A stretch of DNA of 64,000 bases, from assembly GCA_977017645.1 (NCBI GenBank), contig OZ360230.1, positions 16,802,001 to 16,866,000 on the forward strand. The letters run 5' to 3'. This stretch comes from Torpedo marmorata. Lineage: Eukaryota. Positions 3,843 to 63,990 of the stretch are shown piece by piece. Under the pieces are notes generated by a model. The model saw only the letters and a list, made by a program, of their open reading frames with translations. It was not told where the DNA came from and did not search any database. How positions within the stretch are numbered: the stretch's first letter is position 1; each line of letters opens with the position of its first letter. The translations under genes were made by a program, and so were the position numbers.

Positions 3843-6075
3843 TAACCATATAACCATATAACATTTACAGCACAGAAACAGGCCAGTTTGGCCCTTCGAG
3901 TCCATGCCGAACACATTCTCCCACCTAGTCCCACTGACCCGCACCCGGCCCATAACCCTCCACACCTCTCTCGTCCATATACCTATCCAACCTTTCCTTA
4001 AACATTAAAATTGAACTTGCATCTACCACCTCGGCCGGAAGCTCATTCCACCCTCCTACCACCCTCTGAGTGAAGAAATTCCCCCTCATGTTTCCTCTAA
4101 ACTTTTCCCCCTTCAATCTCAATCCATGCCCTCTTGTTTGAATCTTCCCCACTCTCAATGGAAAAAGCCTGTCCACATTGACTCTATCTTTCCCCTTCAT
4201 AATTTTAAATACCTCTATCAAATCACCCCTCAACCTTCTACGCTCCAGGGAATAAAGTCCCAGCCTGTTCAACCTTTCCCTATAACTCAAACCCAGAAAC
4301 CCAGGCAACATTCTTGTAAATCTCCTCTGCACTCTTTCTATTCTGTTTATATCCTTCCTGTAATTCGGCGACCAAAACTGCACACAATATTCCAAATTTG
4401 GCCTCACCAATGCCTTATACAACTTCAACATGACATCCCAACTCCTATATTCAATACTCTGATTTATGAAGGCCAAAATACCAAATGCTTTCTTCACCAC
4501 CCTATCTACGTGTGACTCAACTTTCAGGGAATTGTGTACCAGAATTCCTAAATCCCTCTGTTCTACTGCACTTATCAATTGTCTTCCATTTAACATGTAT
4601 GACCTTTGCTGATTAATCCTACCAAAATGTAGCACCTCACATTTATTAGTATTAAATTCCATCTGCCATGTTTCCGCCCACTCTTCTAACTGTCCTATAT
4701 CCCCCTGCAAGCTTTGATATCCTTCTTCACTGTCAACAACACCACCAATCTTCGTATCATCTGCATACTTACTAATCCAATTTACCACCCTATCATCTAG
4801 ATCATTAATATATATGACAAACAACAATGGACCCAGTACCGATCCCTGAGGCACTACACTAGTCACCGGCCTCCAATTTGACAAACAATTTTCCACCACT
4901 ACTCTCTGGCATCTCCTATCCAACCATTGTTGAATTCATTTCACTACTTCGTCGTTAATACCTAATGCTTGAACCTTCCTAACGAGCCTCTTATGCGGAA
5001 CCTTGTCAAATGCCTTACTAAAGTCCATATAGACAACATCCACAGCCTTCCCCTCGTCAACCCTCTTAGTAACCTCATCGAAAAACTCTATGAGATTTGT
5101 CAAACATGATCTACCACGGACAAAACCGTGTTGACTACTCCTAAGCAATGCTTGTCTTTCCAAATAACTGTATACACCATCTCTAAGAACACTCTCCATT
5201 AATTTACCCACTACCGATGTCAAACTCACAGGCCTATAATTTCCAGGTTTACTTTTGGAGCCCTTCTTAAACAGTGGGACAACATGAGCTACCCTCCAAT
5301 CCTCCGGCACCTCCCCCGTGGCCAGTGACATTTTAAATATTTCTGTCAGAGCTCCCACTGTTTGTACTCGGGAATATCCTGTCAGGACCTGGAGATTTAT
5401 CCACCTTTATTCTCTTTAAAATAGCCAATACTACCTCCTCATTAATCTTTATATTATCCATGACCTCCCTGCCAGATTGCCTTACTTCACCTGGCTCAAT
5501 ATTCCTTTCCTTTGTAAATACTGAAGAAAAAAATTCATTTAAAATCTCCCCCATCTCCTCTGACTTCTCACATAGCCTACCCGTCTGATCCTCAATGGGC
5601 CCAATTTTATCCCTCACTATTCTTTTGCTTTTAATGTACCTGTAGAAACCCTTTGGATTTATTTTTACCTTGCCTGCCAAAGCAGCCTCATATCTCCTTT
5701 TAGCCTTTCTAATTTCTTTCTTAAGATTTTTTTTACACTCCTTATATTCCTCAAGGACCTCATCTATTCCCTGCTGTCTATACCTGTTGTACACATCTCT
5801 CTTCCTCCGAACCAAATTCCCAATATCCTTTGAAAACCAAGGCTCCCTATATTTTCTAACTCTTCCTTTAATCCTCACAGGGACGAACCGACTCTGTACT
5901 CTCAAAATTTCCCATTTGAATATCCTCCATTTATCTGTGACATCCTTTCCTAAAAATAAATTATCCCAATCCACCCCCTCTAAATCTTTCCTCATCTCCT
6001 CAAAATTTGCCTTATTCCAATCAAGAATCTCAACCTTAGGCCCAGCCCTATCCTTCTCCATTATCAACCTAAAAC
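3843..6075 (-). mobile_element. CR1-clade LINE (HER1-like), 5'-truncated, with disrupted ORF2 reverse transcriptase
   Basis: Three consecutive ORF pieces (5333-6097, 4936-5358, 3925-4923) carry KSPGPD, NYRPVSLTS, QHGF, DFSKAFDKV, VPQGSVLGP and YADD. They are broken by a small deletion/frameshift (~5365) and a TGA (4936). The 3' tail is the tandem repeat (AACCATAT)n at 3843-3862. Confidence 0.95.
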
Positions 6076-7649
6076 CTTCCACGAGCTTAGGAAACAAATC
6101 ATGTTGAAAAATTATTCATTTATGATATGGACACATTTGAGCAATTATTGGTTTAATATTGTTACACTTTAAAGTTTTATGTTTTAAATTATTCAGTCAT
6201 GGCAAAGAGCCCAATTCTGAAATATATTTAAATTACGCTATTGTATTTGATATCAGACTCAGATACTCTTTCACTTTTTGTTTGCATTGATTTGTCTTTG
6301 CAAATTAATTATCCAGTTTCATTTTTCCAAATACCTGTGATGTTGCATAAGTGTACTTTGATTGATGGCTGTTCACCGTCTGCAGGAAGCAAGCTTCAAA
6401 GGAAATGTAGTTCTCAAGGAGTTAATGGAGCATATGCATGCTGTAAATTGCTGAATGAGTAGTTTCCTGTGTTTTTACTTGCTAGAAAGAGGATGAAGAA
6501 TGAAACTATAATGAGAAGCTGTTAGCACACAACAGCTTCAAACCCATCTTGAAAAGATCCTTATAGAGAGGATCCATCATCACACCTCGGAGTTGCACAT
6601 GCAAATTATCACACCTGGTACTACCAAATTCCACATCCTCGTGTGTTTACAGAAGAATCCTCACTGTTGTTGAGAGGAAATTGAGGTAACAGAGATTTTA
6701 CAAGATTCATGTTTAATGTGTTAAAGGGAAATCTACCAGTATTTGCAACTTTCTATTTATCACTGTAACATAGATTGTCCAATCAAAAGCAGTTAAAATA
6801 TATATAATAAATTTGGTGCTAATGAGTTATTTTATCTTTATATTGTTAAAAGTCAAAATGCAAAATTTGGCTGCAAGAGCAGAGAAAGCAGCTTTTAGAT
6901 TGTTAATCATTACAAATATTTTGTTTTTTGTCAACAGAGGAGTCTTTTAATTTTGAGGTGGTAATTTGTTTGATATAAATTAATTAGAAGTTTTAACACA
7001 GGTGAGTAGAATAATTAGCCTTAAACATTATTTTTATTGATGTGCCATAAGATGAAATCTTATCTTCCTTATTACAAGGTACATGACTTTCTAAGAAATA
7101 TGATATTATATAAAATACATCAACCATTGTTATTAAGGGCTTTGCATTAATAATGCAGAGGTGCTACATTGTTTAATTTGAAAAGGTCAGGATTCTTGGA
7201 TCACTGGTGCAGTAAAAATTTGGGGAATTCAACATTCAAATAGCAAGCTTTGTAAGATAAGATAGCAAAAATGCAAGCAGAGCCAACAGCTCCCAACCCC
7301 TTAATAATTATTTCTTAGTGGTTTTTATTCTCTTCTTTGGCTTCTGAACAAAACTGGTATGAGAAAAGAAGTTGATGACTGCAGTGGCATATGCCTAAGG
7401 TGGCAGATGGTTGTGTGGTGACTGTAGTGTTTGTAGGTGGACAGCTGTGAGGAATGTGCCACTTCAGAGCCAGGCAGCAAATCAGCTTTCAGCTGAAAAA
7501 CAGAAAGAATTTGAAACATAAGGTGCTGTCTACACATGAATATAAACCTTAATTTTGTATTCTGCCCCTCTGTGGTGTATGTGTGGCTGGTTGAGTACAA
7601 TGTATTCAATTTACAAGTCGTAGATCTGCCATTGTTTTGTGAAAACTAT

Positions 7650-13397: not shown

Positions 13398-13545
13398 TGT
13401 AAACAAGGGAGACTGCAGATGGTGTAAAACTGGAGCAACACACAAAATGCTGGAGGAATCAGCAGGTGAGGGAGCATCAGGGAAGGCAATAGATAGTAAA
13501 CATTTGGGGCCAAAATGCTGCTTTGGGAACTTTCAACGTAGTTTC
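13398..13545 (-). mobile_element. Penelope-like 3' tail fragment
   Basis: ctgcagatggtgtaaaactggagcaacacacaaaatgctggaggaatcagcaggt is the reverse complement of the tail family. Confidence 0.6.
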
Positions 13546-15752: not shown

Positions 15753-15920
15753 CAGGGGTGGCCAACCTTTTAATTTAGACATACAGCACGGTAACAGCGT
15801 TTCGGCCCACGAGTACGTACCGGGGGTGTAGGTTAATTGGGTGGCACGGACTCGTGGGCCGAAATGGCCTGTTACCGTGCTGTATGTCTACATTAAAAAT
15901 TAAAAGGTTGGCCACCCCTG
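15753..15920. mobile_element. hAT (Charlie-like) MITE, 168 bp, whose interior is made of inverted SINE 3' tails
   Basis: TIRs CAGGGGTGGCCAACCTTTTAATT / AATTAAAAGGTTGGCCACCCCTG. Perfect 8-bp TSD ATTTAGGA (15745-52, 15921-28). Confidence 0.92.
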
Positions 15921-16102
15921 ATTTAGGAAGTTTGCAATTTGACCCCGAGCAGAAAAAGAATTCTGCAAGAATACATTTTAATTCGAACAATGTGGTTATA
16001 TTGTAGCTCCCTCAGATCTGCATGGCGAATGCACAGTGACAGGGCTCAGCTTCTCCATTCACCAACGTCAGAGTATACGCCAAGTCACCTTTCCGTTGAT
16101 GA

Positions 16103-16366
16103 ACACAAATGCTGGAGAACTCAGCAGGTCAAACAGTGTCTTTTATGTAGCAAAGGTAGAAATACATAACCGACGTTTCAGGCTTGAGCCCTTCTTCAAA
16201 GTATGAGAAAATGCCGGCAGGCATTTGATGAAGGGCTCAAGCCTGAAACGTCGGTTATGTATTTCTACCTTTGCTACATAAAAGACACTGTTTGACCTGC
16301 TGAGTTCTCCAGCATTTGTGTTTTTTACTACATTATTACGGTGTCTACAGATTTTCGTGTTTACTT
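16103..16366. mobile_element. Fold-back non-autonomous Penelope-derived element with a hammerhead-like core in each arm
   Basis: Inverted arms of ~98 bp (16103-16200 / 16224-16322, one mismatch seen), then a unique 3' tail to 16366. Perfect 14-bp TSD CTTTCCGTTGATGA (16089-16102, 16367-16380). Confidence 0.85.
16225..16255 (+). ncRNA. Minimal (Penelope-type) hammerhead ribozyme motif; mirror copy on minus strand at 16172-16199
   Basis: UUGAUGA-A-[GGGC UCAA GCCU]-GAAAC-GUC gives the core boxes, a 4-bp stem II, a palindromic ACGU in place of stem III and a GUC triplet. C3 is U and stem I is weak, so activity is unproven. Confidence 0.55.
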
Positions 16367-18504
16367 CTTTCCGTTGATGAGCAGACAGCCAAACTTCTGA
16401 GTTGGCCTCGAGAGACCAAAGAGGGGGTTTGTCTCTCACCACAGCCCTGGATGACTGTCTCGCCATCCATTCACAGAGCTTAATACGTGTGAAATATCTT
16501 GAGTGTGTAGATAAGACCATTGGCATTCTACAAACAATGGAAGCTACCACCGCTACCCCCTCATTCTCTAGACATTGTCCCTTTCCACCCTCTCAAAAAC
16601 TGCACGAAAGCTGTGCTCCACAGTGCCAAAGACGAGGCGCTGATTTGCCCCGGCGGCCTCCTGCCGCTGCAGTGAGCTGATTCCTTGTTTGCGATGGAAG
16701 GAATGCGGCTCAAGCCACAGAAGTGCGCTCAAGTTCAATCTCATTAATGGCCCGTCTTTTGCAATAACAACTTATAGTTTGCTCTACTTTAGAGTTATTT
16801 ATTTCCATAACAAGCATTCTATTCTCACGTGCGTTGGTTATTTTTCAACACGTTAGGTGGCGCAAGCGGTTTAGGATTGAACTGGCATTCCCTTTCCTGT
16901 CTGAACTGGCTTCTGCAAACACATCGAGAGACAAAAAAAAAAACCATGTTTGGCAACGCGTTAACAACATGCTCCGGATGCAACCTTCCCCTGCGTTCCA
17001 GATTCCTTTATTCCGTGGTCCCTGTCCCAGCGACTGTGTACAAGTTACTGATGATGACTCATCTGTTATCTGGGTTTGCCAGTCGGATTCCCGTGCACAC
17101 ACAAGTGAGATGATTCTGTGTTCATTGCTCAGAGAGACTGAATCAACTGCCGGAACCATGGTCTAGTACACATCTCCCCCGCAATGCCATTAGAAATACA
17201 CCTGGATATTTGTTTTCCTAAAAGGTTTGCAATGGATTTTATGACGTTTTATCACAACCACTTTTCCCTCTTGCACTTGAAACAATGATTGGTATTTAGA
17301 AGAGATGTTTGGGCAATCTGATCACTGTGACGTCTGATATATTAGTTTTTTATAATGGACAGCCAAGAAGAAATAAAACCCAGTGTATCGTTAAAGAGTT
17401 GACTGGGGGCACAAAGAACACGAAACACTTCACCCTTTAATCCAGACGCCCAACAAACCTCACCCTTCTATCTTTGATCATTTGGTGTTAAGTTTTTGGG
17501 AGGAATTTTCTACACTGCAACTTTTCGGTCCCCGTTTCAACAAAATAAGCATTACACGAGACTGCCTTCATGTCAAATTTCTCGCGTATTTAAATCTCTC
17601 TGAAGATTTGTAATCACTGCTATCCTGTTGCCCATCGTCCAATCCGAAAATTATTCGGATCGAAAGTTTAGCAACCCTTCCCCACCCACATTTCTTTTCC
17701 ATTTGTAAAGGACACAGAAGTTGTTGAACTGAAATTCAGACTGCAGTTGAGAAATTTCCCAGAGCAGCCTCTGAATATCTAGCTTGGCATGAAGTGGGTT
17801 GTAGTTTTATATCTTATTCGTTTCACTTTCCATTTCTAAGATTATTCCGTTATAAAGATGTAAAGGTTGTTACTGGTGGCTCTTTGTCCTCCGCCTTCGT
17901 GGAAATCACCTGATTTTATTTACGCCCCTCTACCCCATCTCAGACTGTTAATTCATCAATTTTTATTCCATTTCTTCTGCAAATTGATTTTCAGCTGGAC
18001 AAGATGTCTTCTTGGTAAGAGATGGCCTGTTTATGTGTGGGATATCGCGTAGAGAACACAGAATACATATGGATTTTGCTAACTATCATTCCAAACAACC
18101 AACACCACTCATGTGACCAGTTAAGTGAGTTGGCAAGGATCTGCCAAATGGAGTGTAATTTGGAAAATGAGAAATTATCCGTTGCCAGGAAAATAAATTA
18201 TAAAATTTCACATTAAGTAAATGGCGAAAGATGGCAAAGGTCTGCTTTGCAGAGAGATCTGTGTGTCAGAGAGCAAGGTTTGTTGATACAGAAATTAATT
18301 AGGAAAGTCAAGGGAATTGCTTGGGGAATTGAATTGAAAAGAAGAAAGGTTTTACTTCAGTTTTACAAGGCATTTGTGACACCACATCTTGAGTACCGTG
18401 TTCAATATTGGTGTCCTTATTAAGAAGAATGTTTAATGCATTAGAAGCAGTTCAGAGAAGGTTTACCAGACTAATTCCCAGTATTGGGAATCAAGAACAA
18501 ACTG

Positions 18505-34532: not shown

Positions 34533-36383
34533 AGAAATTTGATTCTAGTTCTTTGATTGGTTAAATTATCACATATACATTAATTGTAGTGTGTGACATG
34601 AAGTACCGGTACATTCTTTACTTGGTACACACAATGTGTGTTATGTAAGGTTTGTTTTTTGTGAGGCGTTATATATGGCACGCATGTTTTGGTGAATCAA
34701 GTGTGGAACGCTTGGTAAGGCACATAATATATTGTAAAGTGTGGCACATAATGTAAGGTAAATTTTTTGTAGTGTTGTGATAAGGAAACAAGTTACATGA
34801 GAGCATTGTAAAGAACTTGTGCCAAGAGTATTGTGCTTTGAAAATTTACAACTTCATCACGTGGTTCACTGGGAAGCCCACTGGTAAAACTATCCTAACA
34901 GAGGCTCTATTTATTTTAGCAAAAGAATTTTAAAATGACATTTCCACATTACCATATATGCTTTACACTTTTTGCAAGGTTTGTGCATTCAGAGATAAAA
35001 TTTTACCAACATTAGTGATAGTTAGGTGAGTGAACTGACTTGAAGATAGTTTACTAAATGGAATGCAATCTTTCAGGAACCGATCCTATCTGCGATTTAC
35101 TGTGAAGTTAAACATTAATGTGTTAAGTGGCTTTGTACTTTGCTGAGAACATAGCATAACCCATGAAGTAAAAACACTTGCAACAGGGTAGTGGATGTCT
35201 GTTGAACCACAGGACTATACTTGTTTTATGGAAGACACCAAAGATAAGAACAGTGAATAAAGATAATAGAAGAACTTTCCAAAACTCTTGTAAAATGTCT
35301 GTGCAACAGCAAATACAACTGGCCTCTAGCCCCTAGGCTAAAAAGTGCAAATTTTCTCCAGAAATGTTGCAAAGAAGACGAAAATACATTCGGCAGTCAT
35401 TGAAAATGTAACTCGTATTACTCTAAACAAAACATTTTTCTATTGTTTTTACATAACCTGGGTATTGAACACAGGTACATGAAAGGAAGCTTATGTAAAC
35501 TAAAAGGTAAAGCGTGTGCATTAATAAAACAGTGTAAAGCGTGAGAAAGGGTTTCACAGTACAATTTTGTTTTTGCCTGGGGCACCTCCATGGTCAGGAA
35601 CTAGTTAGTGATTGTGCATTTCAGAAAGCCAATGCCAAACTTACACAGTAGTCCCTTTGTTACACCATCCACACCATCACCCATACCTAACCAAATTAAG
35701 TCAACTCATCCCTTCACATTCTTTAACTGTCTGACTCGGTTCGAGGCTGCATATTCAAACACTGCAGTCATTTCATGGTCTTGCGGGATAATTACATGTT
35801 GGTTATATTGGATCACAGCAAATCTGCCAATTTATGTATTCGAAATGCAAACTTTTTGACCTGTTAACATGAACAAGATGCAATTAGTTACATATTATAA
35901 TTTTATGTCAGCAGGAGCCAGAAAGTGGTTCTGAATACATTTAACCATATTCCAGCTTGCCCGATATTATAATGCAATGGGTAGATATGTTGCAAAACAC
36001 CCCCCTTTGGTTTGTGTTTGATTCCAGGTGGAAATCAAGATAAAATCACAGTCATGCCTTTTGGGAAATATTTCCTTTCTACCATTGGTAACTGCATTGT
36101 AAAGTCTATGTGAAAAAATAGACACAGAAAACAACTGCAGTAAAATCCCTGTTATCCAGAATTCAAGCAACCGGCAGCCTCCAGCAACCGGCAACAAAAA
36201 AAAAAAATCACGGAAAATAAATAGGTAAAAAATACAAAAGTTTAAATTTGGCACTCCCTAGTGGTTAGATCACCAATCACGCAACACACAATCTCATGCA
36301 ACGGGAAAATATACCGTATATTTCGGCGTATAAGTCGAGTCTTGAAACCCTCAAAAATCTCTCAAAAAACGGGGGTCAACTTA

Positions 36384-37324
36384 CCGTATATTTCGGCGTA
36401 TAAGTCGACCCTTGAAACTCTCAAAAATGTCTCAAAAAACGGGGGTCGACTTATACGCCGGATATACTTTTGAGACCTTAAAATCAGCTCACAATCGAGT
36501 TCACGCCGATTCGGCGTATAAGTCGACCCCTGAAAACACGATTCGGCGTATAGGTCGACCCTGGAAGCGCCTCCCCACCGCTCCTGCTCGGGAGAACAAC
36601 GTCCCCGCTCCTGCTCGGGAGAACGACGTCCCCGCTCCTGTTCGGGAGAACGAGCTCCCCGCTCCTGCTCGGGAGAAAGACGTCCCCGCTCCTGCTCGGG
36701 AGAAAGACGTCCCCGCTCCTGCCCGGGAGAACGAGCTCCCCGCTCCTGCTCGGGAGAACGAGCTCCCCGCTCCTGCCCGGGAGAACGAGCTCCCCGCTCC
36801 TGCCCGGGAGAACGAGCTCCCCGCTCCTGCCCGGGAGAACGAGCTCCCCGCTCCTGCTCGGGAGAAAGACGTCCCCGCTCCTGCTCGGGAGAACGAGCTC
36901 CCCGCTCCTGCTCGGGAGAACGAGCTCCCCGCTCCTGCTCGGGAGAAAGACGTCCCCGCTCCTGCTCGGGAGAGCGAGCTCCCCGCTCCTGCTCGGGAGA
37001 AAGACGTCGCCGCACCTGCATCTTCCCGGCCAGAAGGAAAGGTTTTTTTTTACTGTTTTTTTTTTTACTTACCGGTACTTGCTTAATTTACAGCTTTGTT
37101 ACTTGGTGATTGGGATGTTGTAACAAATTTTGGGCTGTTGCTGGGAGGCCCAGACAGCCTGAAAATTGGGGGTCGACTTATATGCCGGTCAATGCGCAAC
37201 ATCTCAGGCATCGCGATTTATGGGGGTCAACTTATACGCCGGATATACCATAAAACCATTAAAATGAGGCTGAAAAAGGGGGGTCGACTTATCCGCCGGT
37301 CGACTTATACGCCAAAATATACGG
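36384..37324. mobile_element. Tc2-like non-autonomous element, inner copy inserted into its own family member
   Basis: Same TIRs, with TA duplicated at 36382-83 and 37325-26. Removing it restores gtcaactTAtacgtcggatatac of the outer copy. Confidence 0.88.
36575..37020 (+). repeat. 27-bp GC-rich minisatellite (~16 units, GCTCCTGCTCGGGAGAACGAGCTCCCC)
   Basis: Direct tandem units; they produce the PAPARENEL / SPEQERGAR pseudo-ORFs. Confidence 0.95.
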
Positions 37325-37559
37325 TATACGTCGGATATACTTTTGAGCCCTTAAAATCAGCTCAAAAACCAATCCACGCCGATTTGGCGTATAAGTCGAC
37401 CCTTGAAAAACCGATTTGGCGTATAAGTCAACCCATGAAAAACCGATTCGGCGTCTATGTCGACGCTGGAAGCACCTCCCCACCGCCGGCGCTGCCGCTC
37501 CCCGACACCTCCCCACTGCCGGGTTCCGCCATAAACCACCCAGACATTCTACAATTGTA

Positions 37560-38200
37560 GAGCCTGAGGTCGCCGCTCCTACCCGGGAGAACGAGGTCGC
37601 CGCTTCTGCCCGGAGAACGGGGTCGCCGCTCCTGCCCGGGAGCCTGAGGTCGCCGCTCCTACCCGGGAGAACGAGGTCGCCGCTCCTACCCGGGAGAACG
37701 AGGTCGCCGCTCCTGCCCGGGAGAACGAGGTCGCCGCTCCTGCCCGGGAGCCTGAGGTCGCCGCTCCTACCCGAGAGAACGAGGTCGCCGCTTCTGCCCG
37801 GAGAACGGGGTCGCCGCTCCTGCCCGGGAGCCTGAGGTCGCCGCTCCTGCCCGGGAGAACGAGGTCGCCGCTCCTGCCCGGGAGAACGAGGTCGCCGCTC
37901 CTGCCCGGGAGCCTGAGGTCGCCGCTCCTACCCGGGAGAACGAGGTCGCCGCTCCTGCCTGGGAGCCTGAGGTCGCCGCTCCTGCTCGGGAGAACGAGGT
38001 CGCCGCTCCTGCCCGGGAGAACGAGGTCGCCGCTCCTGCTCGGGAGAACGAGCTCCCCGCACCTGCTCAGGAGAAAGACGTCACCGCACCTGCTCGGGAG
38101 AACGAGCTCCCCGCACCTGCTCAGGAGAAAGACATCGCCGCTCCTGCTCGGGAGAACGAGGTCCCCGCACCTGCTCAGGAGAAAGACGTCGCCACTCCTG
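37560..38200 (+). repeat. 27-bp GC-rich minisatellite (~23 units, GTCGCCGCTCCTGCCCGGGAGAACGAG)
   Basis: Direct tandem units related to the 36575 array. Confidence 0.95.
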
Positions 38201-38704
38201 CATCTTCCAGGCCAGAAGCAAAGGTTTTTTTTACTGTTTTTTTTTACTTACCGGTACTTGCTTAATTTACAGCTTTGTTACTTGGCGATTGGGGTGTTGT
38301 AACAAATTTTGAGTTGTTGCTGGGAGGCCCGGACAGCCTGAAAATTGGGGGTCGACTTATACGCCGGATATACAATAAAACCATTAAAATGAGGCTGGAA
38401 AAGGGGGGTCGACTTATCTGCCGGTCGGCTTATACGCCAAAATATACGGTACTTATCCAGCATCTACCAATCCCCATCGATGCCGGATATCAGGGGTTTA
38501 CTGTAGTTATATAAATACACAGTAGATTTACTTCATTGTGATATGAATGAAGTCTTGGTTTAGAAATTGTTCATTGTCCAATTATTTACACTTCTGCAAT
38601 GGTGTTTAAAGAACAATTGATTACTTGTGCACTGACTCCGGTGCTTTAAGATTTACGAATTAATGCTTTAAATGGTGTATGTGACTATGACAAGTTGCAG
38701 CAAA

Positions 38705-39932
38705 GATGCATACATCAGGATGCTCTTTATCGACTACAGTTTGGCATTTAACACCATCATCCCCTCAAAACTGATCAACAAACTCCAAGACCTGGGAGTT
38801 AACACCCCACTGTGTAATTGGATCATGGATTTCCTCACCTCCTGACCACAATCAGTGAAGATTGGTAAGAACTTCTCCTCCACAATCACCATCAGTACCG
38901 GAGCACCACAGGGCTGTGATCTTAGCCCCCTGCTCTACTCACTTTACACCTACGACTGTGTGGTTCGGTATGACAATAACACCATCTACAAATTTGCCGA
39001 CGATAACGTGGTAGTGGGTTGTATAAAGGAAGGGGATGAGTCAGCATACAGGATGGAGATTGAAAACTTGGCTGAATGGTGCACCAACAACAACCTTGCA
39101 CTCAATGTCACCAAAACTAAGGAGCTGATTGTTGACTTCAGGAAAGGAAAGCCAGAGGTATACAATCCAGTGATCATTGGGGGATCAGAGGTGGAGAGGG
39201 TGAGCAAATTTAAGTTCTTGGGAGTCACTATCTCGGAGGATCTTTCCTGGACCCAACACACCAATGGCATCGTGAAGAAAGTACGTCAGCGCCTCTACTT
39301 CCTCATGAGTTTGCAGAGGTTTGGTATGACACCAGAAACCCTGGCAAATTTCTGCAGAGGTGTGGTGGAAAGTATGCTGACCGGCTGCATCACGGTCAGG
39401 TATGGAAACACCAATACCCCTGAGCGTAAAGCCCTCCAAAAGATAGTGGGCACAGCCCAGGACATCACAGGCAAAACCCTCCCCACTATTGAGTACAACT
39501 ACAGGGAGTGCTGCCGACGGAGAGCAGCAGCAATCATCATAGACCCTCACCACCCAGCACACGCTCTGTTCTCGCTGCTGCCTTCAGGAAAGAGGTAAAG
39601 ACTTGCACCACCAGGTTCAAGAACAGCTGCTACCCCTCCAGCATCAGACTCCTCAACGACAAACTCAATCAGAGACTCATTTAAGGACTCTTACTTGTGC
39701 ACTTTATTGATTTTCTTTTTGTTCTCTCTGTATTACACGGTCAGTTTGTTCACATTCGTTATATGTTTACAGTTCTTTGTTTGTTTACGTTTTACACTGT
39801 GTACAGTTTATTTTTTTGCACTACCAATTAGTGGTAATTCTGCTGCGCGCACAGGAAAAAGGAATCTCAGGGTTGTATGTGATGTCATGTACAGGTATGT
39901 ACTCTGACAATAAATCTGAAATCTGAATCTGA
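38705..39932 (+). mobile_element. Rex1/Babar LINE, 5'-truncated, RT with stops
   Basis: [47 protein letters not shown] and FKFLGV. Tail tgacaataaatctgaaatctgaatctga. Confidence 0.93.
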
Positions 39933-47253: not shown

Positions 47254-48286
47254 ATCAGAATTTATTGACATGAACAAGTCATGAAGTTCGGTGTTTTGCG
47301 GCAGCATCATAGTGCACACATTCATATTATAACCATTTTACGACATTACTATAAAAAAATATATATAAATAATAGTGCACGAAAAGTAAGGTAGTGTCTT
47401 TGGTTCATTGGTTATTTAGGAATGATGGCAGCGGGGAAGAAGCTGTCCTTGTGCCGTTGAGAGCTCGTCTTTAGGCTCCTGTGCCTTTTTCCCGATGGTA
47501 GCAGAGTGAAGAGGGCATGGCCTGGGTGGTGGGGGTCATTGAGGACAGAGGCTGTTTTTTTAAGACACCGCCTCATGTAGATGTCCTCGATGGAGTGAAG
47601 TCTGGTGCCTGTGATGTCACAGGCCGAGTTAACCACCTTCTGGAGTTTATTCTTGTCCTGGGAGTTGGCGCCTCCATACCAGGCAGTGATGCAACCAGCT
47701 AGAATGCTCTCCACGGTACACCTGTAGAAGTTTACGAGAGTCTTTGGTGACATACCGAATCTCCGCAGACATCTCACAAAGTATAGCCGCTGACGAGCCT
47801 TCTTTGTGATTGCATCAACGTGGAGGCTCCAGGACAGATCCTCAGAGATGTTGACACCCAGGAATTTGAAGTTCTTGACCCTCTCCACTACTGAGCCCTC
47901 GATGAGGACTGGGTCGTGTTCCCCTGACTTCCTCCTGAAGTCCACAATCATCTCCTTGGTTTTGCTGACATTGAGCACAAGGTTGTTGTTGTTACACCAT
48001 TCAACGAGCTGATCTATCTCCCTCCTGTACGCTTCCTCATTGCTGTTTGTGATTCTGCCGACAACTGTGGAGTCATCGGCAAACTTGTATATGGCATTGG
48101 AATTGTGCCTGGCCACACAGTCATGAGTGTATAACGAGTAGAGCAGTGGACTAAGCACGCATCCTTGGGGTGCGCCTGTGTTGATAATCAGTGAGGAGGA
48201 GACATTGTTTCCAATTCGTACTGACTGTGGTCTTTCGATGAGAAAGTCAAGGATCCAGTTGCAGAGGGGGGTACAGAGGCCTAGAG
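47254..48286 (-). mobile_element. Rex1/Babar LINE, 5'-truncated
   Basis: ORF 47412-48158 with [32 protein letters not shown] and LLPSGKR. Confidence 0.93.
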
Positions 48287-50012
48287 ACCCAATACACCAC
48301 TGGGGACATCTCTGAATAAATTCAGCCCTCTGTTGAAAGGGAAAATTTTATTAGTAATTAGTAGAAGTGGGCAGTTGAGAAGGGCTCTTCATAATTCAGC
48401 CAACAGCCTGTTCAGATTCTCCTACTTTTGAAAGGAAAAGTGATGCCAGTTCAGAAGGGCATCACTAAACCACATCTCTCCTTCCAGCTGTCAGGAATTT
48501 TGCTCTTAAATTTTCAAGCAAAAGTTTTCATTGAAATGCTTCCTCCTCTCGATTTTCATAATTGAAGAGTTAGAATTCACTGGTTGTTGGTGGAATTTCC
48601 GTGGGAAACTACCTGAAATATGCTTTCTCTTTATAAGTACAGCTTGCATTGGGGTGCACAACTTTCACCTAGGAATGTTTGGGCCCAATAGTTTTATTGT
48701 GTATAAAGGAAGAGTTAGAGAGGTGAAACGTCATAAAGGACCTTCCCCTCCTTGGGCTTTTAAATGACAAGTATTCGACCTGTTGTGACAAGATCAAGGC
48801 CTGAATTAGTTTTGGCACTATCAGCAGATAAATGCATGGTATTGTTGTTCATTTAATATAGAGGTTCACTGGTGGTATTAACCTACTAAATTTTAAATGG
48901 GTAAGTGCTTTTGTTAAAATAGCAAATTAAGGAGGTTTTAAAGGTGTCTGAACTGCAGTCTATTAAATATTGGCAACAACTATTTCCAGAACCAAAGAGT
49001 TTGAAACATGATGATGGATAAATGTGTGCCCCAGTTCCCAAAATATACCCTCAGGAGATGACAATCTGCCAGGCATACTGCAGATGAGAATCTACCCCTG
49101 TGGATTCGAATCAGCTTGTTGCCACAGCTGGCTGGAAACCAGACAAGAGGTTGGATACAACTTCAAACTGAAACCTGGTGCATGTGTATTTCCAATCTCT
49201 TTGGACCACCTGGATAGATGCGGTTCAATTTCCACCGCTCCCCCTTCCTGGCTCTCCCTGTAAAAGGAGATAGAAAATTAAAAGTGAGGCACTCAATAAA
49301 TACAAAGTGCGAACACTAGAAATCTGAACAAAGAGAAATGCTGGTAATGCACAATGCTGGTAAACAATCAGCCTAATTCATACTGTCATAGCTCTGATTA
49401 TTAATGACCCAAAATGTTGACTGTTCTTTGCACAGATATTGAATGATCCTGTCAGCTCTTCCTCAGCCAGATGGCATATGATACATTTGCCTATTTAGTT
49501 ACTATGATTGTGATATTCGTATAGAGAAGCAAGTTTGTTTTTAATCACCATACCTGGTCAATCCCTTGGTGAATTTTGCCCATTCAGTTTCTCTGTAGTT
49601 CTGTTTGCAACTTTGGTAATATAATCCCAGTTATGTCCTTGTCATTGCATCTGATTGTCATCTGATTGTAGCACCCAGTTGTTTCATTAGGATGCTTAGA
49701 ATGTAACTTTATATCAGTATCTGGGTAATTGTTCTTACTGGTGTTGCAAGAATGAATTCACAAAGACTACCCAATTATCATGCGTCCCTTGAGCGTACCC
49801 GAGTTTACTGTGGATCTGATAATTCTCCAAAGCGACCATGGTAATTTAGTGTGGCCTCCTCTGCATCAGTGAGACCAGTAGATCGGGCGACCACTTTGCA
49901 CAGCACTTGCACTCTCATTTTAATTACCTTTCCCATTCCCATACAGACATGTCTGTCATCTTCTCATCCATTGCTAGTGTGAGGCCAAGCATAAGCTTGA
50001 GGAACAACACTT

Positions 50013-51069
50013 CTACAAACTCTAGGCCTCTGTACCCCACTCTGCAACTGGATCCTTGACTTTCTCATCGGAAGACCACAGTCAGTACGAATTGGAAACA
50101 ACGTCTCCTCCTCACTGATTATCAACACAGGCGCACCCCAAGGATGCGTGCTTAGTCCACTGCTCTACTCGTTATACACTCATGATTGTGTGGCCAGGCA
50201 CAATTCCAGTGCCATATACAAGTTTGCCGATGACACCACAGTTGTCGGCAGAATCACAAACGGCAATGAGGAAGCGTACAGGAGGGAGATAGATCAGCTC
50301 GTTGAATGTTGTAACAACAACAACCTTGAGCTCAACGTCAGCAAAACCAAGGAGATGATTGTGGACTTCCAGAGGAAGTCAGGGGAACACGACCCAGTCC
50401 TCATCGAGGGCTCAGTCATGGAGAGGGTCAAGAACTTCAAATTCCTGGGTATCAACATCTCCGAGGATCTGTCCTGGAGCATCCACGTGGATGCAATCAC
50501 AAAGAAGGCTCGTCAGCGGCTATACTTTGTGAGGTGTTTGCGGAGATACGGTATGTCACCAAAGACTCTCGTAAACTTCTACAGGTGTACCGTGGAGAGC
50601 ATTCTGGCTGGTTGCATCACTGCCTGGTATGGTGGCGCCAACTCCCAGGACAAGAGTAAACTCCAGAAGGTTGTTAACTCGGCCTGTGACATCACAGGCA
50701 CCAAACTTCACTCCATCGAGGATATCTACATGAGGCGGTGTCTTAAAAAAGCAACCTCTATCCTCAAGGACCCCCTCCACCCAGGCCATACCCTCTTCAC
50801 TCTGCTTCCATCGGGGAAAAGGTACAGGAGCCTAAAGACGTGCACTCAACGGCACAAGGACAGCTTCTTCCCCGCTGCCATCAGATTCCTGAATAATCAA
50901 TGAACCAAAGACACTACCTTAATTTTCGTGCACTATTGTTTTAATTTTTTATAGTAATGTCGTTAGAATGGTTAATATGAATGTTAATTGCACTATGATG
51001 CTGCCGCAAAACACTGAATTTCATGACTTGTTCATGCCAATAAATTCTGATTCTGATTCTGATTCTGAT
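50013..51069 (+). mobile_element. Rex1/Babar LINE, 5'-truncated, open RT C-terminal frame
   Basis: ORF 50148-50903 is near-identical to 47412-48158. (ATTCTG)n tail. Confidence 0.93.
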
Positions 51070-54745: not shown

Positions 54746-56356
54746 TTTCTAATTTTTTTCTTGTTCTAATGGAAGGTCATCCACTCAAAATATCAACTCT
54801 GTTCCTTGCTTCTGGGGTGCTGGCAGACCTGCAGAATATTTCCAGCACTGGAGTCTTAGTTAGATGGTTCTAATTTACTTTTTAAGTTAAATTCATTCCA
54901 AAAGCTGCAAATTCTGGTTGTGATGAAGCCTATTTCGAAAGATTGTGCAAGGGTATGATTAAATGAAGTCATTGTTTTCATCATTTCAGGGAATATTTGG
55001 ATAATTTGATTTTAACATTTTTTGATGGAAGAAAAAAACATCCTCATTGTGTTGCTTAAGTTTCCTCGTGTGCAGCGATTTCCTCAAGGAAATCTTACAG
55101 CTGTGACCTTCATTCACTTTTAAATTTATTGATCTTTGTTCTGATCCTCCAATCGTTGGATGACTTTGTGATTGACAAGTTGGACTTTTGCAGAATAAAA
55201 ATAAAAATTGATCACTTTGAATTCAATTCAGATAGCATTCCTGTTCAATATTTCAAGAAGTAAATGGTTTTGAAATGTGAACTGTGCAGCAGCCACTTCC
55301 CTTGAGGGTGAGGGGTATTGATTCAAACTGAACAAATTGGCAGGCATGCATTTTTAAACTCTGGAGTATCTGAAGAAGATAGCGGCCAAAAGATTTGGCA
55401 TGAGTTATTACTATTAAATTTGATTATTTTTTTTAATGCCAAGAATGTGATTTGTGAGATGGGGTAACATGCAGGGAGGCTGAGGCAGCGGGATGGATCT
55501 ACTTCGGATTACATTTTAAATCGGAGAACATGTTGTAATAAGTACATGTTGGTTATTGCCATGTGAAAGGCTAATAGAGACAGATTGTTTAATGCATTTT
55601 TATACCCGAATTTCTGAACATGATGAATGTTGGCATTTTATTTTGATAATGATTAAATTATTTGAAATAATATAGCGCAGCTGACCTTTTGATCTTTTGC
55701 TGCTTACCATTGCACGGTTAAAGAGCGTTGCTGCTAATTGGCTTGATTCACTCTCAGTCACTTCCATTAGGGGAAATGAAATCAAAAGCAAATTTCAGGA
55801 CATCAAGAAAAGAACCTGCTGGAGATTCCTTTGTTAGGAACATCATGCTTTGTATTAAACAACACATTGTGCACTCCCACAAAACCGCCTGATGCTTACA
55901 GCTTTGAAAAATGCAGATGCTGTAACACTTTAATGACAATATTATTTTTCCTGAAAACTCCATTTCTACTTTAAATTCACGAGAACAAAGCAAAGCAAAG
56001 TCGTTTATCATCCATCATTGATGCTTTGTATTATCTGCATTGTTTGAGCAAATGCTGAGCAAACAAGGCGGCAGCAGTTGGATCTACTCAGATTTGCCTA
56101 CACGAGCATATCACTTGATCCCACTGACCAAGAGCTCCTGTTGATTTACATCTCATTATGGAACTAATGAATTGTTTAGGCAACAAGTACATTTGGCAAG
56201 AGTCTTCATGGGTTACCATGCATAATTAATTAGACAGGGCATTTGTTAATATTTGAAATTGCTGTCCCTGTTTCTTGATATCCAGCTCAAAAATATTGAC
56301 ACAATTATTACCCTTACCTGACTCACATCCAGGAGCTGTTAAATATCTTTTTTTAA

Positions 56357-56454
56357 GTAAAAAACACAAATGCTGGAGAAACTCAGCAGGTCAAACAGTG
56401 TCTTTTATGTAGCAAAGGTAGAAATACATAACCGACGTTTCGGGCTTGAGCCCT
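56357..56454 (-). mobile_element. Single arm of the hammerhead-bearing Penelope tail
   Basis: Almost identical to 16103-16193. The minus strand reads aagggctcaagcccgaaacgtcggtt (perfect GGGC/GCCC stem II) but lacks the UGANGA box. Confidence 0.8.
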
Positions 56455-57742
56455 TTGTTAATGGAAAATACAATAGGAAAAAAATATTTATTCCTGTGAA
56501 GTGAAGATGTATATTCCTCTTAGAGCTAGGCTTTTACTTTCAGGGTGTTGCAGATCTAACTTCAGGTTATGGGTGAATGTAATATGTTGAGAATATTTAT
56601 TTTCTTGATTACCGGTAGTTTCAATTTATAAAATTCAATACTGGTATGCAGAATGCTTCTTCATTAAATATGNNNNNNNNNNNNNNNNNNNNNNNNNNNN
56701 NNNNNNNNNNNNNNNNNNNNNNNNNNNNNNNNNNNNNNNNNNNNNNNNNNNNNNNNNNNNNNNNNNNNNNNNNNNNNNNNNNNNNNNNNNNNNNNNNNNN
56801 NNNNNNNNNNNNNNNNNNNNNNNNNNNNNNNNNNNNNNNNNNNNNNNNNNNNNNNNNNNNNNNNNNNAAATACTTCATAATGTGTATTTTACCTGAAATG
56901 AATATTGATAAGTTGTGGATATATGAAAGTCATGCCTCATATCAGTGGAGGACAGCAATGAAATCATTCAGGGTTGTAATGCAAAAAAAAGAGCCAATTT
57001 TACTCCTTTTTTCCATGAGTCACCTGTGATAATATTTTGTCTTATTCATTTCTCACATCCTTCAATATTTCATTTCACCCTGCTTCAATTGTTCAAACTC
57101 TTATCTCTGAGCCAGAAAATCAAAGATTCAAACCAGTTTTGAACACATTTTAGATCAATATTCTCATTAGAGGTTGCATCTTTAGTTAAAGGAGTCAAAC
57201 TGATAACCCATTGAAATGCATAGAGGAATGCAAATTATTCGATGGTGAAGTTTGACAAAAGAGCAGGAAATTTTCCTCGTGGTCTACCAATATTCCTCCC
57301 TTAATGAACACCATCAAAAGCAGATGAACGTCATTTGTGTGTGAAATTTGCATGCAAATTGACTGCCACGTTTGTCCATGTAGTTCTATGACCTTCAAAA
57401 AATATCCATTGGATATAAATTACTGAGGGACTTAGAGGATGTAAAACACAAGGCTTCTTTCCTCCAATTAACAAGATAAATTTCCTTTATAGAAACTTAG
57501 GAATGTTGTATCAATATCATAATTGCTATCTGTGCGAAAATGTTCTAACCTTATCCTTATTTCAAACTTGCTTCTCTGGTTATTGGGAATTTTGGCCTTG
57601 GATTTCCTTGCTGTAGCGAGCCATGGGCGCTCATCACTTGTCTACCTGTTTAACCCACCCTTATCCTGAGAAGATTCTAGATAAGGACTTCTTTAACAAA
57701 GTTGCCTCTGATCTGATGAGTATGACTAAGTGCATCACAATG

Positions 57743-59711: not shown

Positions 59712-60370
59712 ATGACGGACCAGGCAAGCATCCACGTGATCGCCCTGAAGCTACCGACCTTCTGGACAACACAACCACAGGTCTGGTTCGAGCAAGCCGA
59801 GGCTCAATTCCAGATCCAACAGATCTCCTCTGACGCCACGAGGTACTACTACGTGGTGAGCTCGCTGGATCAAGACACAGCGGCCAGAATCGTCGATTTC
59901 CTCTGGCACCCACCAGAGCAAGAGAAGTATGAGGCCATGAAAGAGCTATTAATCCGCACCTTCGGGCTCTCGAAGCGCGAGCGCACAGCCCGATTGTTGC
60001 ACATGAACGGGTTGGGGGACAGGGCCTCATCTGTCCTCATGGGCGAGATGTTAACGCTCGCCGACGGCCATAGACCTTGCATGTTCTTCAAGCAGATATT
60101 CTTGGAGCTATTGCCGGAGGATGTCTGATTGATGCTGGCAGACAAGGACTTCAGCGACCCGAGGAAGGTGGCAGCCCGGGCAGACGTGCTACACGGGCAC
60201 ACGTCGCCAAGCCCCGCTTTCAGCGAACGACAGGGCCGCCAGCTACACGCGACAGGCCAACGGACCCCATGGGTGAGCAGTGCTGTTATCATCAGCGATG
60301 GGGTGCGGAGGCCCGATGATGCCACCCACCCTGCACGTTTCCGGGAAACGCAACGGCCGGCCGTTGTTAA
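59712..60370 (+). pseudogene. gag: Gypsy gag (disrupted)
   Basis: ALKLPTFW..PQVWFEQAEAQF N-terminus, stop at 60126-28, and the C-X2-H-X9-C-X3-C knuckle CCYHQRWGAEAR*CHPPC typical of the CsRN1 clade. Confidence 0.88.
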
Positions 60371-63290
60371 TGGCTGCGGCGGTTGGCCAACGAGACAGCC
60401 TGCTCCACGTGTGGGATTCCCTGTCAGGACAAAACTTCTTGGTCAACACCGGAGCCGAAGTCAGCGTCCTGCCCCCCTCGGCACATGACATCCGCAACAA
60501 GCGGCAAGGCCCATCATTGAGAGCAGCAAACTGCTCCACCATAAGGACGTTCGGCATGCGTACCGTGCCGCACCGTTACAGCGACAGCCGGTTCACATGG
60601 ACTTTCACACTCGCTGCAGTAGAACGACCACTCCAAGGAGCGGATTTCCTCAGGGCACATTGCCTGCTGGTGGATCTCAAAGGGCGAAGGCTGGTCCACG
60701 CTACAACCTTCCAGTCTTTCCCCCTGGGAAAAGCTGATTTACCCGCCCCCCCCCACCTCCATTCTATCACCGTTGACCGCAACGAGTTCTCACGAATCCT
60801 CGCTGAATTCCCATCCATCGCGGTACCACAGTTCACCTCTGCCGGCCCAAACACGGGGTGCAACACCACATCATTACCGAGGGCCCTCCACGCTAGGGCA
60901 CGCCACCTCCCCCCCCCAAGAAGCAGATGTTAGCAAAAGAGGAGTTCAGAAAGATGGAAGAACTGGGGATCGTGCGCAGGTCAGACAGCCCCTGGGCATC
61001 CTCCCTACACATGGTACTGAAAGCGGCAGGAGGGTGGAGACCGTGCGGAGACTACCGGCGCCTGAACGAGGAAACCACGCCAGACCGATACCCAGTGCCC
61101 CACATACAGGACTTCACCGCAAACTTACAGGGGTCATGGGTCTTCTCCAAGGTTGACCTGATCAGAGGCTACCACCAGATCCTGGTCCACCCTGAGGACA
61201 TAGCTAAAACCGCCATCATAACCCCCTTTGGTTTGTTTGAGTTCCTAAGAATGCCTTTCGGGCTAAAAAACGCGGCTCAAACTTTCCAGAGGTTGATGGA
61301 CAGGGTGGGCCGGGACCTCGATTTTGTATTCATCTACCTCGATGACATACTAGTGGCTAGTCGCAATCGTGAAGAACATGCGGCGCACATACGGCAGCTG
61401 TGCTTCCGCCTCAGAGACTTCGGCCTGACCATCAACCCGGCCAAGTGCCAGTTTGGGCTAGAGACTATTGAATTCCTGGGCCACAGGATTACCAGACACG
61501 GGGCGACACCGCTACCTGAGAAGGTAGAGGCTGTCAGGCGCTTCACCAAGCCACACACGGTGAAGGGCCTCCAGGAGTTCACCGGTATGATCAACTTTTA
61601 CCACCTTTTCATACTGGCGGTAGCCCACATCATGCGCCCGCTATTCGCCTTGATGCCTGGCAAGAAGAAAGAGGTGGAGCATTAGAAGCGTTTCAGAGGG
61701 CCAAAGCCACGCTTCTGGTGCACCCGCGAACAGATGCCCCGACCGCCCTCATGACAGACGCCTCCAACAGAGCGGTCGCGGGAGTACTTGAGCAACAGGT
61801 GGACAGACAATGGCAGCCCTTAGCTTTCTTCAGCAGGCATCTGCGGGCACCCGAGCTCAAGTACAGTGATTTTGATCGTGAACTGCTTGCCCTATACCTA
61901 GCGGTACGACATTTCCGATCACAAACCACTGACCTTCGCTTTCAACAAAGTGTCGGACCCGTGGTTGGCCAGGCAACAAAGGCACCTGTCCTATATATCC
62001 GAATTTACCACGGATATTCAGCATATCGCCGGAAAGACTAATGTGGTGGCTGACGCTTTATCACGCCCTACAATTCAGACGATACAGGCACTGTCCCAAG
62101 GGGTCGACTTTACAGCGTTGGCCCAAGCATAGCTGCAAGACCCTGAGATTCCCACGAACAGAACGGCGGTGACAGGTCTTAAACTAGAAGACATCGCCAT
62201 CGGGCCCGGCAACCAGACACCACTCTGCGATATGTCAACGGGTAAACCCCGCCCTGTTGTCCCCGAGGCATGGAGACGCCCAGCGTTCGACACGGTGCAT
62301 AACCTGGCGCACCTGTCCATCAGGACCACGGTCAGGTTGGTAGCCAACAGGTTCGTGTGGCACGGTCTCCAGAAACAAGTCAGCCAGTGGGCAAGAACCT
62401 GCACACACTGCTAGACGTCTAAGGTACAGATGCATGTCAAGGCGCCCCCCCCCCCCCCCCCAATCGTTTGAGCCAGTACGGTGGAGGTTCAGCCAAGTCC
62501 ACATCGACATCGTGAGCCCCCTGCCAGTATCGAGAGGGGCACGGTACCTACTGACGATGGTAGAACGTCTTACGAGATGGCCGGAAGCGGTTCCGCTGGC
62601 AGAAACCTCAACGGGGACCTGTGCCAGAGCCCTCATCGACACATGGATGGCTCGATTCGGAGTCCCGGAATACCTGACATCCGACAGGGGTGCGCAGTTC
62701 ACTTCGGGACTCTGGACAGCTATGGCTAACCTGTTGGGAACCCAGCTCCACCACACCACGGCTTACCACCCCCAGGCCAACGGACTGGTGGAGCGGTTCC
62801 ACCGGCCCCTGAAGGCAGCCCTGATGGCCCGCCTCAAAGGACCACACTGGACTGACGAACTACCATGGGTACTACTGGGAATCAGAACGGCACCCAAAGA
62901 GGACCTCGATACCTCAGCAGCAGAGTTGGTGTATGGCGCACCCCTGGTTATTCCTGGCGAGCTCCGAGAGCGACTGGGGACACTGGCCCCGTCACAACCC
63001 ACACCTCACGACCACCCAAAGACACGTGCCCAAGGACCTACTCAACTGCAGGTTTTCGTACGACGAGGAGCACATCGGCCGCCGCTGCAATGACCTTACG
63101 AGGGGCCCTACAAGGTGATCCAGCACAATGGATCAACATGTGTGCTGGACATCGGAGGCAAGGAAGAGACATTCACAATAGACCGCCTTAAGCCAGCACA
63201 CAACGACGCCAGCCAACTGGTCATCACACCAACCCCACGGCGCAGAGGCAGGCCGCCGAAAGCACAAAACACCGCCACGATCGCCGGTTC
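60343..63290 (+). pseudogene. pol: Gypsy pol (protease, RT, RNase H, integrase), with multiple frameshifts/stops and a catalytic D>N in the protease
   Basis: FLVNTGAEVS; [24 protein letters not shown] and YLDD; TDAS..DRELLA; HNLAH..CTHC; HIDIV, SDRGAQF and ANGLVERFHR; YEGPYKV. Confidence 0.93.
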
Positions 63291-63763: not shown

Positions 63764-63990
63764 AAACACAAAAATGCTGGAGGAACTCAGCAGGTCACGC
63801 CGCATCCATAGGAGGAAAAGATATATAACCAACATTTTGGGCCTGAGCCCTACCTTGAAGAAGGGTTCAGGCCTGAAACATTGGTTACATATCTTTTCCT
63901 CCTATGGATGTTGCGTGACCTGCTGAGTTCATCCAGCATTTTTGTGTTTTTACTACAATCACAGCATCTGCAGACTTTCGTGTTTCACTC
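63764..63990. mobile_element. Second fold-back Penelope-derived element with hammerhead-like core
   Basis: Inverted arms ~63764-63851 / 63862-63949. Core ACC-TTGAAGA-A-GGGT TCAG GCCT-GAAAC-ATT-GGT. Probable TSD cacaagtata (63750-59) / cacaaatata (63991-64000, cut by the window end). Confidence 0.8.

Follow-up and report, generated by a model that had tools for sequence, protein, structure and literature searches.

Structure of the insertion

The window (the whole 64-kb stretch of DNA analysed here) contains an insertion of 264 bp that is enclosed by a 14-bp target site duplication (TSD), whose copies at 16089–16102 and 16367–16380 are identical at 14 of 14 positions. With the same TSD finder, none of 300 random flank pairs scored. 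The first three bases of the right copy are letters that are frequent after the tail elsewhere, which leaves this boundary ambiguous by three. Two inverted arms, 16102–16200 and 16224–16322, are 99 nt long each and are separated by 23 nt, with one mismatch between them; the final base of the left TSD copy is shared with the left arm. These measurements agree with the first-pass annotation, which had described a 264-bp insert with a perfect 14-bp TSD and inverted arms of about 98 bp.

We found that the arms and the tail correspond to the pLTR end of a Penelope-like element (PLE) whose copies carry a reverse transcriptase (RT), a CxxC linker and a GIY-YIG endonuclease. The left arm (16102–16222) is an inverted pLTR piece without a tail that has the parent sense on the minus strand; its match to the parent ends at 16222, beyond which the parent sequence diverges. 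The right arm (16224–16329) is a pLTR piece with the parent sense on the plus strand and ends at the inner of two inferred RT start sites. It is followed on the plus strand by the Penelope 'tail' of about 36 nt (16330–16366), a term that we use as in PMC3846280, PMC8557442 and PMC11167929. The tail lies between the two inferred start sites, which both end in a similar GTGTTT..ACT motif. The 44 nt between the 99-nt right arm and the TSD comprise this tail and 7–8 nt of arm that are missing from the left arm; the length had been given correctly before, whereas the description as unique does not hold, since the sequence is the tail of the family.

The centre (16213–16226, plus strand) shows the mini-hairpin GCC-GGCA-GGC of the parent antisense strand, followed by ATTT, which is absent from the parent. 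The 23-nt spacer is largely additional inverted arm: most relatives are 11 bases longer at this point and form nearly perfect palindromes around a 4-nt loop. Folded as RNA, the insert has an energy of −196.9 kcal/mol (z −27), and none of 200 shuffled sequences was equally stable. The locus is a young, very short and dead insertion of a Penelope-like element, with an architecture that has already been published.

Related sequences lie elsewhere in the window. A tail-less solo arm of the same Penelope family at 56356–56455 has 98% identity, ends at the stem II hairpin and has an unclear TSD. An older relative with about 74% identity (63764–63990) has the same layout, with the tail on one side and a centre that is different and shorter; its probable TSD is cut by the window end. 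A short piece of another older relative lies at 13424–13467. Upstream of the insertion, a separate palindromic element of 168 bp (15753–15920), which we take to be a hAT-type MITE because its terminal inverted repeats measure 24 bp and its TSD 8 bp, is very abundant in three of the four contig runs compared. GC-rich tandem repeats at 36346–38302, apparently in opposing orientations, result in long stop-free frames. Broken pol frames near the window end, presumably Gypsy-type, and several RT fragments, presumably from LINEs, were found at 60277–63093, 3925–6115, 38846–39598 and 47412–50903. No host gene frame of at least 200 aa stood out in the 64-kb window.

The parent element

Upstream of the arm, the sequence leads into an ORF with RT, CxxC linker and GIY-YIG that is joined to the same pLTR (L035, L101 and L104). 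At L104, the Pfam model RVT_1 is matched with 32.1 bits, which is above the cut-off, and GIY-YIG is matched with an E-value of 0.003, below the cut-off. The parent translations have a C-x4-C-x2-C linker between RT and endonuclease, a linker type common to Neptune and Nematis (PMC8557442). The earlier proposal of a Penelope-derived sequence inserted by RT and GIY-YIG holds. The exact junction of ORF and pLTR occurs in 40,864 copies in the genome and the exact core in 91,400.

Among 30 unselected parent loci, the terminus lies at about +120 in 13 and at about +155 in 16, so that 29 of 30 end at one or the other position, and the interval between the two is the tail. An inverted piece is present within 1.5 kb in 11 of these 30 loci. 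We also inspected nine long head-to-head pairs (0.3–3.8 kb), which were picked for closely spaced opposite matches and are not a random sample: all nine have one end of each kind, and eight have a TSD of 12–17 bp. Insertions of the family from 0.26 to 3.8 kb thus share one layout, namely head-to-head arms, a tail on one side only and a TSD of 12–17 bp. Furthermore, position N7 is the same in both arms of head-to-head pairs even when these are kilobases apart (12 of 12 pairs among the first 100 core rows).

The same Penelope family is present in other organisms, as judged from four contig runs compared; in these runs, where flank coverage was poor, no empty site or polymorphism was found. At L037, about three pLTR units of 145 bp are arranged head to tail, each with a core on the same strand, which is the layout that defines non-LTR retrozymes. 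Head-to-tail pLTR arrays with shorter repeat units occur at L034, L056 and L061. A pair of nearby matches in opposite orientation on C2 (L061) raised the possibility of a full element between palindromes, and this was rejected as no PLE ORF of at least 150 aa lies there.

Hammerhead cores

Each strand of the insertion contains a hammerhead-like core, with the letters as stated in the first-pass annotation. The minus-strand core (16172–16199; the putative cleavage-site GUC ends at 16172) has U3, N7=A, a 4-bp stem II and no stem III loop, and its weak stem I retains the native 5' strand. The plus-strand core (16225–16252; GUC ending at 16252) has U3 and N7=U, and has lost the native 5' strand of stem I through the 11-nt shortening. 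Stem I has three anchored pairs, a weak duplex, in the minus core and one anchored pair in the plus core. Both cores fit the minimal PLE hammerhead, with the core boxes, stem II, a palindromic 15.2–16.2 and no stem III. The minimal metazoan PLE hammerheads of PMC4209133 likewise have a type I core, an extra base before stem II, a G–C first pair and no stem III, and dual motifs on opposite strands 100–700 bp apart have been reported there. Our cores differ from these in having a 4-bp stem II and in that U3 faces G8, which is not a Watson–Crick 3–8 pair, in both cores and in 99 of the first 100 cores of the family, whereas C3–G8 and U3–A8 are the combinations listed in that paper.

Our assignment is based on inspection of the motif and on the literature on minimal PLE hammerheads. 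The search with hammerhead models that had been proposed gave no Rfam hammerhead match at E≤10; the seven matches obtained all belong to hairpin-type miRNA models and score far below the gathering thresholds. According to the folding model, opening either core would cost about 40 kcal/mol in the full transcript, compared to 5.9 in the parent context. A read-through transcript would thus be predicted to bury both cores. Insertion by Poseidon_Ac (PAc) does not depend on its hammerhead, which shows no activity unless the protein is present (PMC11167929).

Relatives across the genome

A BLAST search with the insert against the 6.2-Gb host genome resulted in 582 candidates, of which 40 were scored and 30 fetched, including the window locus; direct repeats of 12–17 bp were found at the same ends in 28 of the 30. 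By themselves these copies resemble the amplified unit that had been proposed, but the query itself selects for such copies. A pattern that is blind to the centre detected at least 872 mini-palindromes. Among the first 50 of the 872, the centre is a perfect palindrome in 10 (at a native palindrome of 8 bp), contains the 4-nt loop in 9, is loop-like in 2 and occurs once in 29, which amounts to about 30 distinct centres. The exact centre of the window copy occurs five times, in differing subfamily backgrounds and with the tail on either side.

The loop motif has 268 matches, and we examined 97 of the first 100. Of these, 58 are full palindromes, 16 switch to another part of the element, and in 23 the motif is not followed by element sequence. 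Exactly one tail is present in 56 of the 58 palindromes and two tails in none, and the TSD measures 12–20 bp in 52 of 57 loop-centre copies. The direction of the loop relative to the tail is balanced (29:27, P=0.89). One arm haplotype bears the loop, the perfect and a third type of centre, and the loop centre in turn is found across many haplotypes that span the subfamilies seen in ORF-linked copies. The third recurrent centre, GCCGGCCGGC, occurs at L184, L190, L194, L202, L207 and L209, which represent three arm haplotypes; there is little microhomology that would account for this centre. In another mini-palindrome (G000:C1:83038150-83038192), the centre includes two telomeric-type hexamers.

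The two arms of a copy mirror each other: in 78 copies, 11 private substitutions and a 14-bp deletion are present in both arms, where about 0.15 mirrored changes are expected from the one-sided rate (112 differences at 6,979 sites) when CpG hot spots are ignored. Four of the 78 copies (L006, L020, L040 and L063) combine arms of two subfamilies that differ at two linked sites, which suggests that two RNAs were used in one insertion event.

Because of the balanced polarity, the three centres on one haplotype and the roughly 30 centres among 50 loci, a non-autonomous unit copied from a master (SINE- or MITE-like) is not supported. The mini-palindromes are likely by-products of insertion that are made afresh each time rather than a self-spreading unit.

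Formation of the centre

On the parent antisense strand, GCC-GGCA-GGC is followed by other letters, whereas the loop copies show ATTT, which is complementary to the bases that precede the stem. DNA loops of the type C(GNNA)G are unusually stable. When the 97 loci are read in the direction GCC-GGCA-GGC-ATTT, the sequence ends without a second arm in 39; in the opposite reading, which is the one expected from a hairpin RNA template, this is the case in 3 of 100, and host flank is never reached. A hairpin RNA is therefore not the usual template. A natural variant bears on the same question: in the N7=A subfamily (7,412 copies), a one-base change breaks the 3-bp stem in 93 of the first 100. This subfamily accounts for 2 of the first 100 loop-register centres, compared to about 14 expected (P=3e-5), and for 45 of the first 100 perfect-centre rows. 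Together, the asymmetric loss of an arm and the depletion of the stem-breaking subfamily point to a snap-back of cDNA made on the parent RNA. In a folding model, the hairpin end ranks 7, 10 and 12 of 25 listed ends, i.e. among the better ones but not first. The position of ATTT relative to the TSD in the 23 solo-type loci (outside in 8, inside in 5) is a weak indicator, since the search pattern selected those letters.

A tail on one side within a direct TSD would not arise from snap-back alone, so that a further cDNA, primed at the opposite nick, is required. In the window copy, the join lies 11 nt farther out than the common loop centre, at a 3-nt TTT microhomology; alternatively, the 11 nt may have been deleted at a later time between TTT repeats.

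Proposed mechanism and alternatives

We consider it highly probable, judging from genomic end products in one assembly, that the insertion is a short head-to-head Penelope-like insertion that was built in situ from two short cDNAs and was not copied from an earlier fold-back unit. The endonuclease would nick both strands about 14 bp apart, and each 3' end would prime RT on the parent RNA, one at the end of the tail and the other about 36 nt upstream. The left arm would then be a cDNA that starts at the inner RT start site with the top-strand nick as its primer, and the right arm would be complementary to a cDNA for which the bottom-strand nick serves as primer; both cDNAs would be antisense and would stop early. 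The top-strand cDNA may fold back at GCC-GGCA-GGC and gain ATTT by copying itself, after which the folded cDNA would anneal to the other cDNA and fill-in would generate the palindrome. The hammerhead cores would have been carried along with the pLTR, and a read-through transcript is predicted to keep them base-paired and silent. Both strands are likewise cleaved and extended in vitro by the related PLE protein Poseidon_Ac, which uses two RNA start sites, one at either border of the tail (PMC11167929). One comparison counts against in situ formation: the T2/T young haplotype appears enriched in loop copies, with 13 of 31 that have identical readable arms, compared to 3 of 22 fully readable long copies, although all 22 lie within the first 2.4 Mb of a single contig. 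The mirroring of the arms could also partly reflect later gene conversion.

It is unlikely that a minority of fold-back copies, perhaps including the lineage of the window copy, have been transcribed and re-inserted in trans. Both cDNAs would then start on the 3' arm, and one of them would continue across the loop and enter the opposite arm. The centre, together with about 20 nt next to it, would be inherited in this way, and the outer arms would be made anew. The window copy, L204 and L199 share the tail haplotype and the N7 mismatch, with A on the same (snap-back) side of the loop and T in the other arm in all three, and with tails on either side, as such re-insertion predicts; the opposite N7 polarity is found at none of 15 loci with N7=A beside a 4-nt centre. 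Similarly, L041 and L042 share one long centre and have their tails on opposite sides. However, a polarity of three in three has a chance of 1 in 4, and the window copy, L204 and L199 have centres of different lengths and also differ from each other at two further mirrored positions. Truncated products that read the loop in the direction of a hairpin RNA into host flank were found in 0 of 100 loci, discordant arms (4 of 78) can also result from two co-packaged RNAs, and no promoter is evident. Two differing pLTRs of one source would also fit the N7 mismatch of these three copies. A composite account has about the same low probability: Penelope would insert by dual priming with a dimeric RT able to hold two different RNAs, the cDNA mini-hairpin would set the join, and a few stubs, including the window lineage, would have turned into templates, as protein-free hairpin RNAs whose centre is inherited and whose arms are rebuilt.

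The first-pass annotation had interpreted the insertion as a protein-free unit mobilised by the Penelope RT and GIY-YIG, with a rod-like transcript that contains a ribozyme core and resembles retrozymes or ambisense viroid-like RNAs. On this interpretation, the entire unit would be copied from a self-cleaving RNA. The cores on both strands and the approximately 200 loci (206 matches) that share one centre and outline with distinct TSDs, with TSDs in 28 of 30 fetched copies, would agree with this. Yet copying of a whole unit would fix the polarity of the loop relative to the tail, which is 29:27; it would not mirror private changes, it cannot define the tail-less end, and most centres are one-offs. 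The cost of opening the core (40 kcal/mol in the full transcript compared to 5.9 in the parent context) and the lack of a same-strand tandem ribozyme pair that could release a circle also argue against this interpretation, which we regard as very improbable, together with the likeness to retrozymes and viroid-like RNAs. Shared junctions with different TSDs had been suggested as evidence for such a unit. Many copies do share the outline, but this is misleading as a test of unit amplification because the junctions are hot spots fixed by the parent sequence and are not inherited. The alternative that had been offered in the same annotation, an extreme truncation product, fits best.

More improbable still is that no second priming took place, i.e. 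that one cDNA folded back and copied itself end to end, or that later conversion or cruciform repair homogenised the arms. Self-priming at palindromes has been proposed (PMC3846280), and the snap-back evidence and the mirrored variants found here are in line with it. Nevertheless, this would predict a tail on both sides or on none, whereas 56 of 58 copies have one, as well as an inverted flank repeat, whereas most copies have direct TSDs; the N7 agreement in arms kilobases apart (12 of 12 pairs) also speaks against it. An assembly artefact is ruled out by the direct TSDs, the one-sided tails and the many distinct centres, and a DNA transposon (MITE) by the non-terminal repeats, the tail at one end and the TSDs varying from 12 to 20 bp.

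Comparison with known systems

In twin priming of L1, both target nicks prime cDNA, which results in an inverted 5' part inside the TSD; the second primer anneals at variable internal sites and the two halves do not overlap. In situ assembly from two cDNAs resembles this in that both nicks prime and the inverted part lies inside the TSD, but in the present case the second start would be fixed, and one and the same stretch would be copied in each half.

The insertion closely resembles those of endonuclease-containing (EN+) PLEs, which are also composed of a head-to-head inverted 5'-truncated copy, a one-sided tail of 30–40 bp and a TSD (Pen2a_Av, PMC3846280; PMC8557442). Pen2a_Av also has a small palindrome at the inverted junction, which was ascribed to self-priming (PMC3846280). 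In contrast to the rotifer element, both halves are cut here to about 100–150 bp, and the TSD measures 12–17 bp rather than 8–10 bp (PMC3846280). Furthermore, PMC3846280 argues for an antisense RNA template, whereas our data fit snap-back of an antisense cDNA plus a second priming. Poseidon_Ac, which is similar in the cutting and extension of both strands and in the two RT start sites, belongs to a different clade, as the parent studied here has the Neptune/Nematis CxxC linker; in the main text of PMC11167929, second-strand synthesis and joining are left open and a head-to-head join is not described. Among the titles and abstract openings searched, a coverage outside which most subscription literature lies, we found no paper stating a join by dual priming for PLEs.

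Non-LTR retrozymes are likewise non-coding, derived from pLTRs and a few hundred bp long, with a type I hammerhead (PMC7229834; bioRxiv 10.64898/2026.07.22.740005). They consist, however, of head-to-tail tandems with same-strand ribozymes that release circRNAs (PMC7229834; bioRxiv 10.64898/2026.07.22.740005), whereas the insertion described here is a single head-to-head pair with one core per strand.

Implications

For annotation, our results mean that recurrent centres can make such stubs mimic a MITE or a viroid-like family. The origin of the inverted repeats and tails of PLEs is called unresolved in the PLE papers cited here, and hundreds of minimal products of recent age can be studied in this genome. 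Testable rules follow from the family: there is one start site per nick, and the arms usually come from one source and sometimes from two. The join point, in turn, is tied to a hairpin of 3 bp in the cDNA and moves elsewhere if the stem is disrupted by a natural one-base variant. Although the locus is ordinary in kind, the set of stubs to which it belongs hints at how Penelope-like elements insert.
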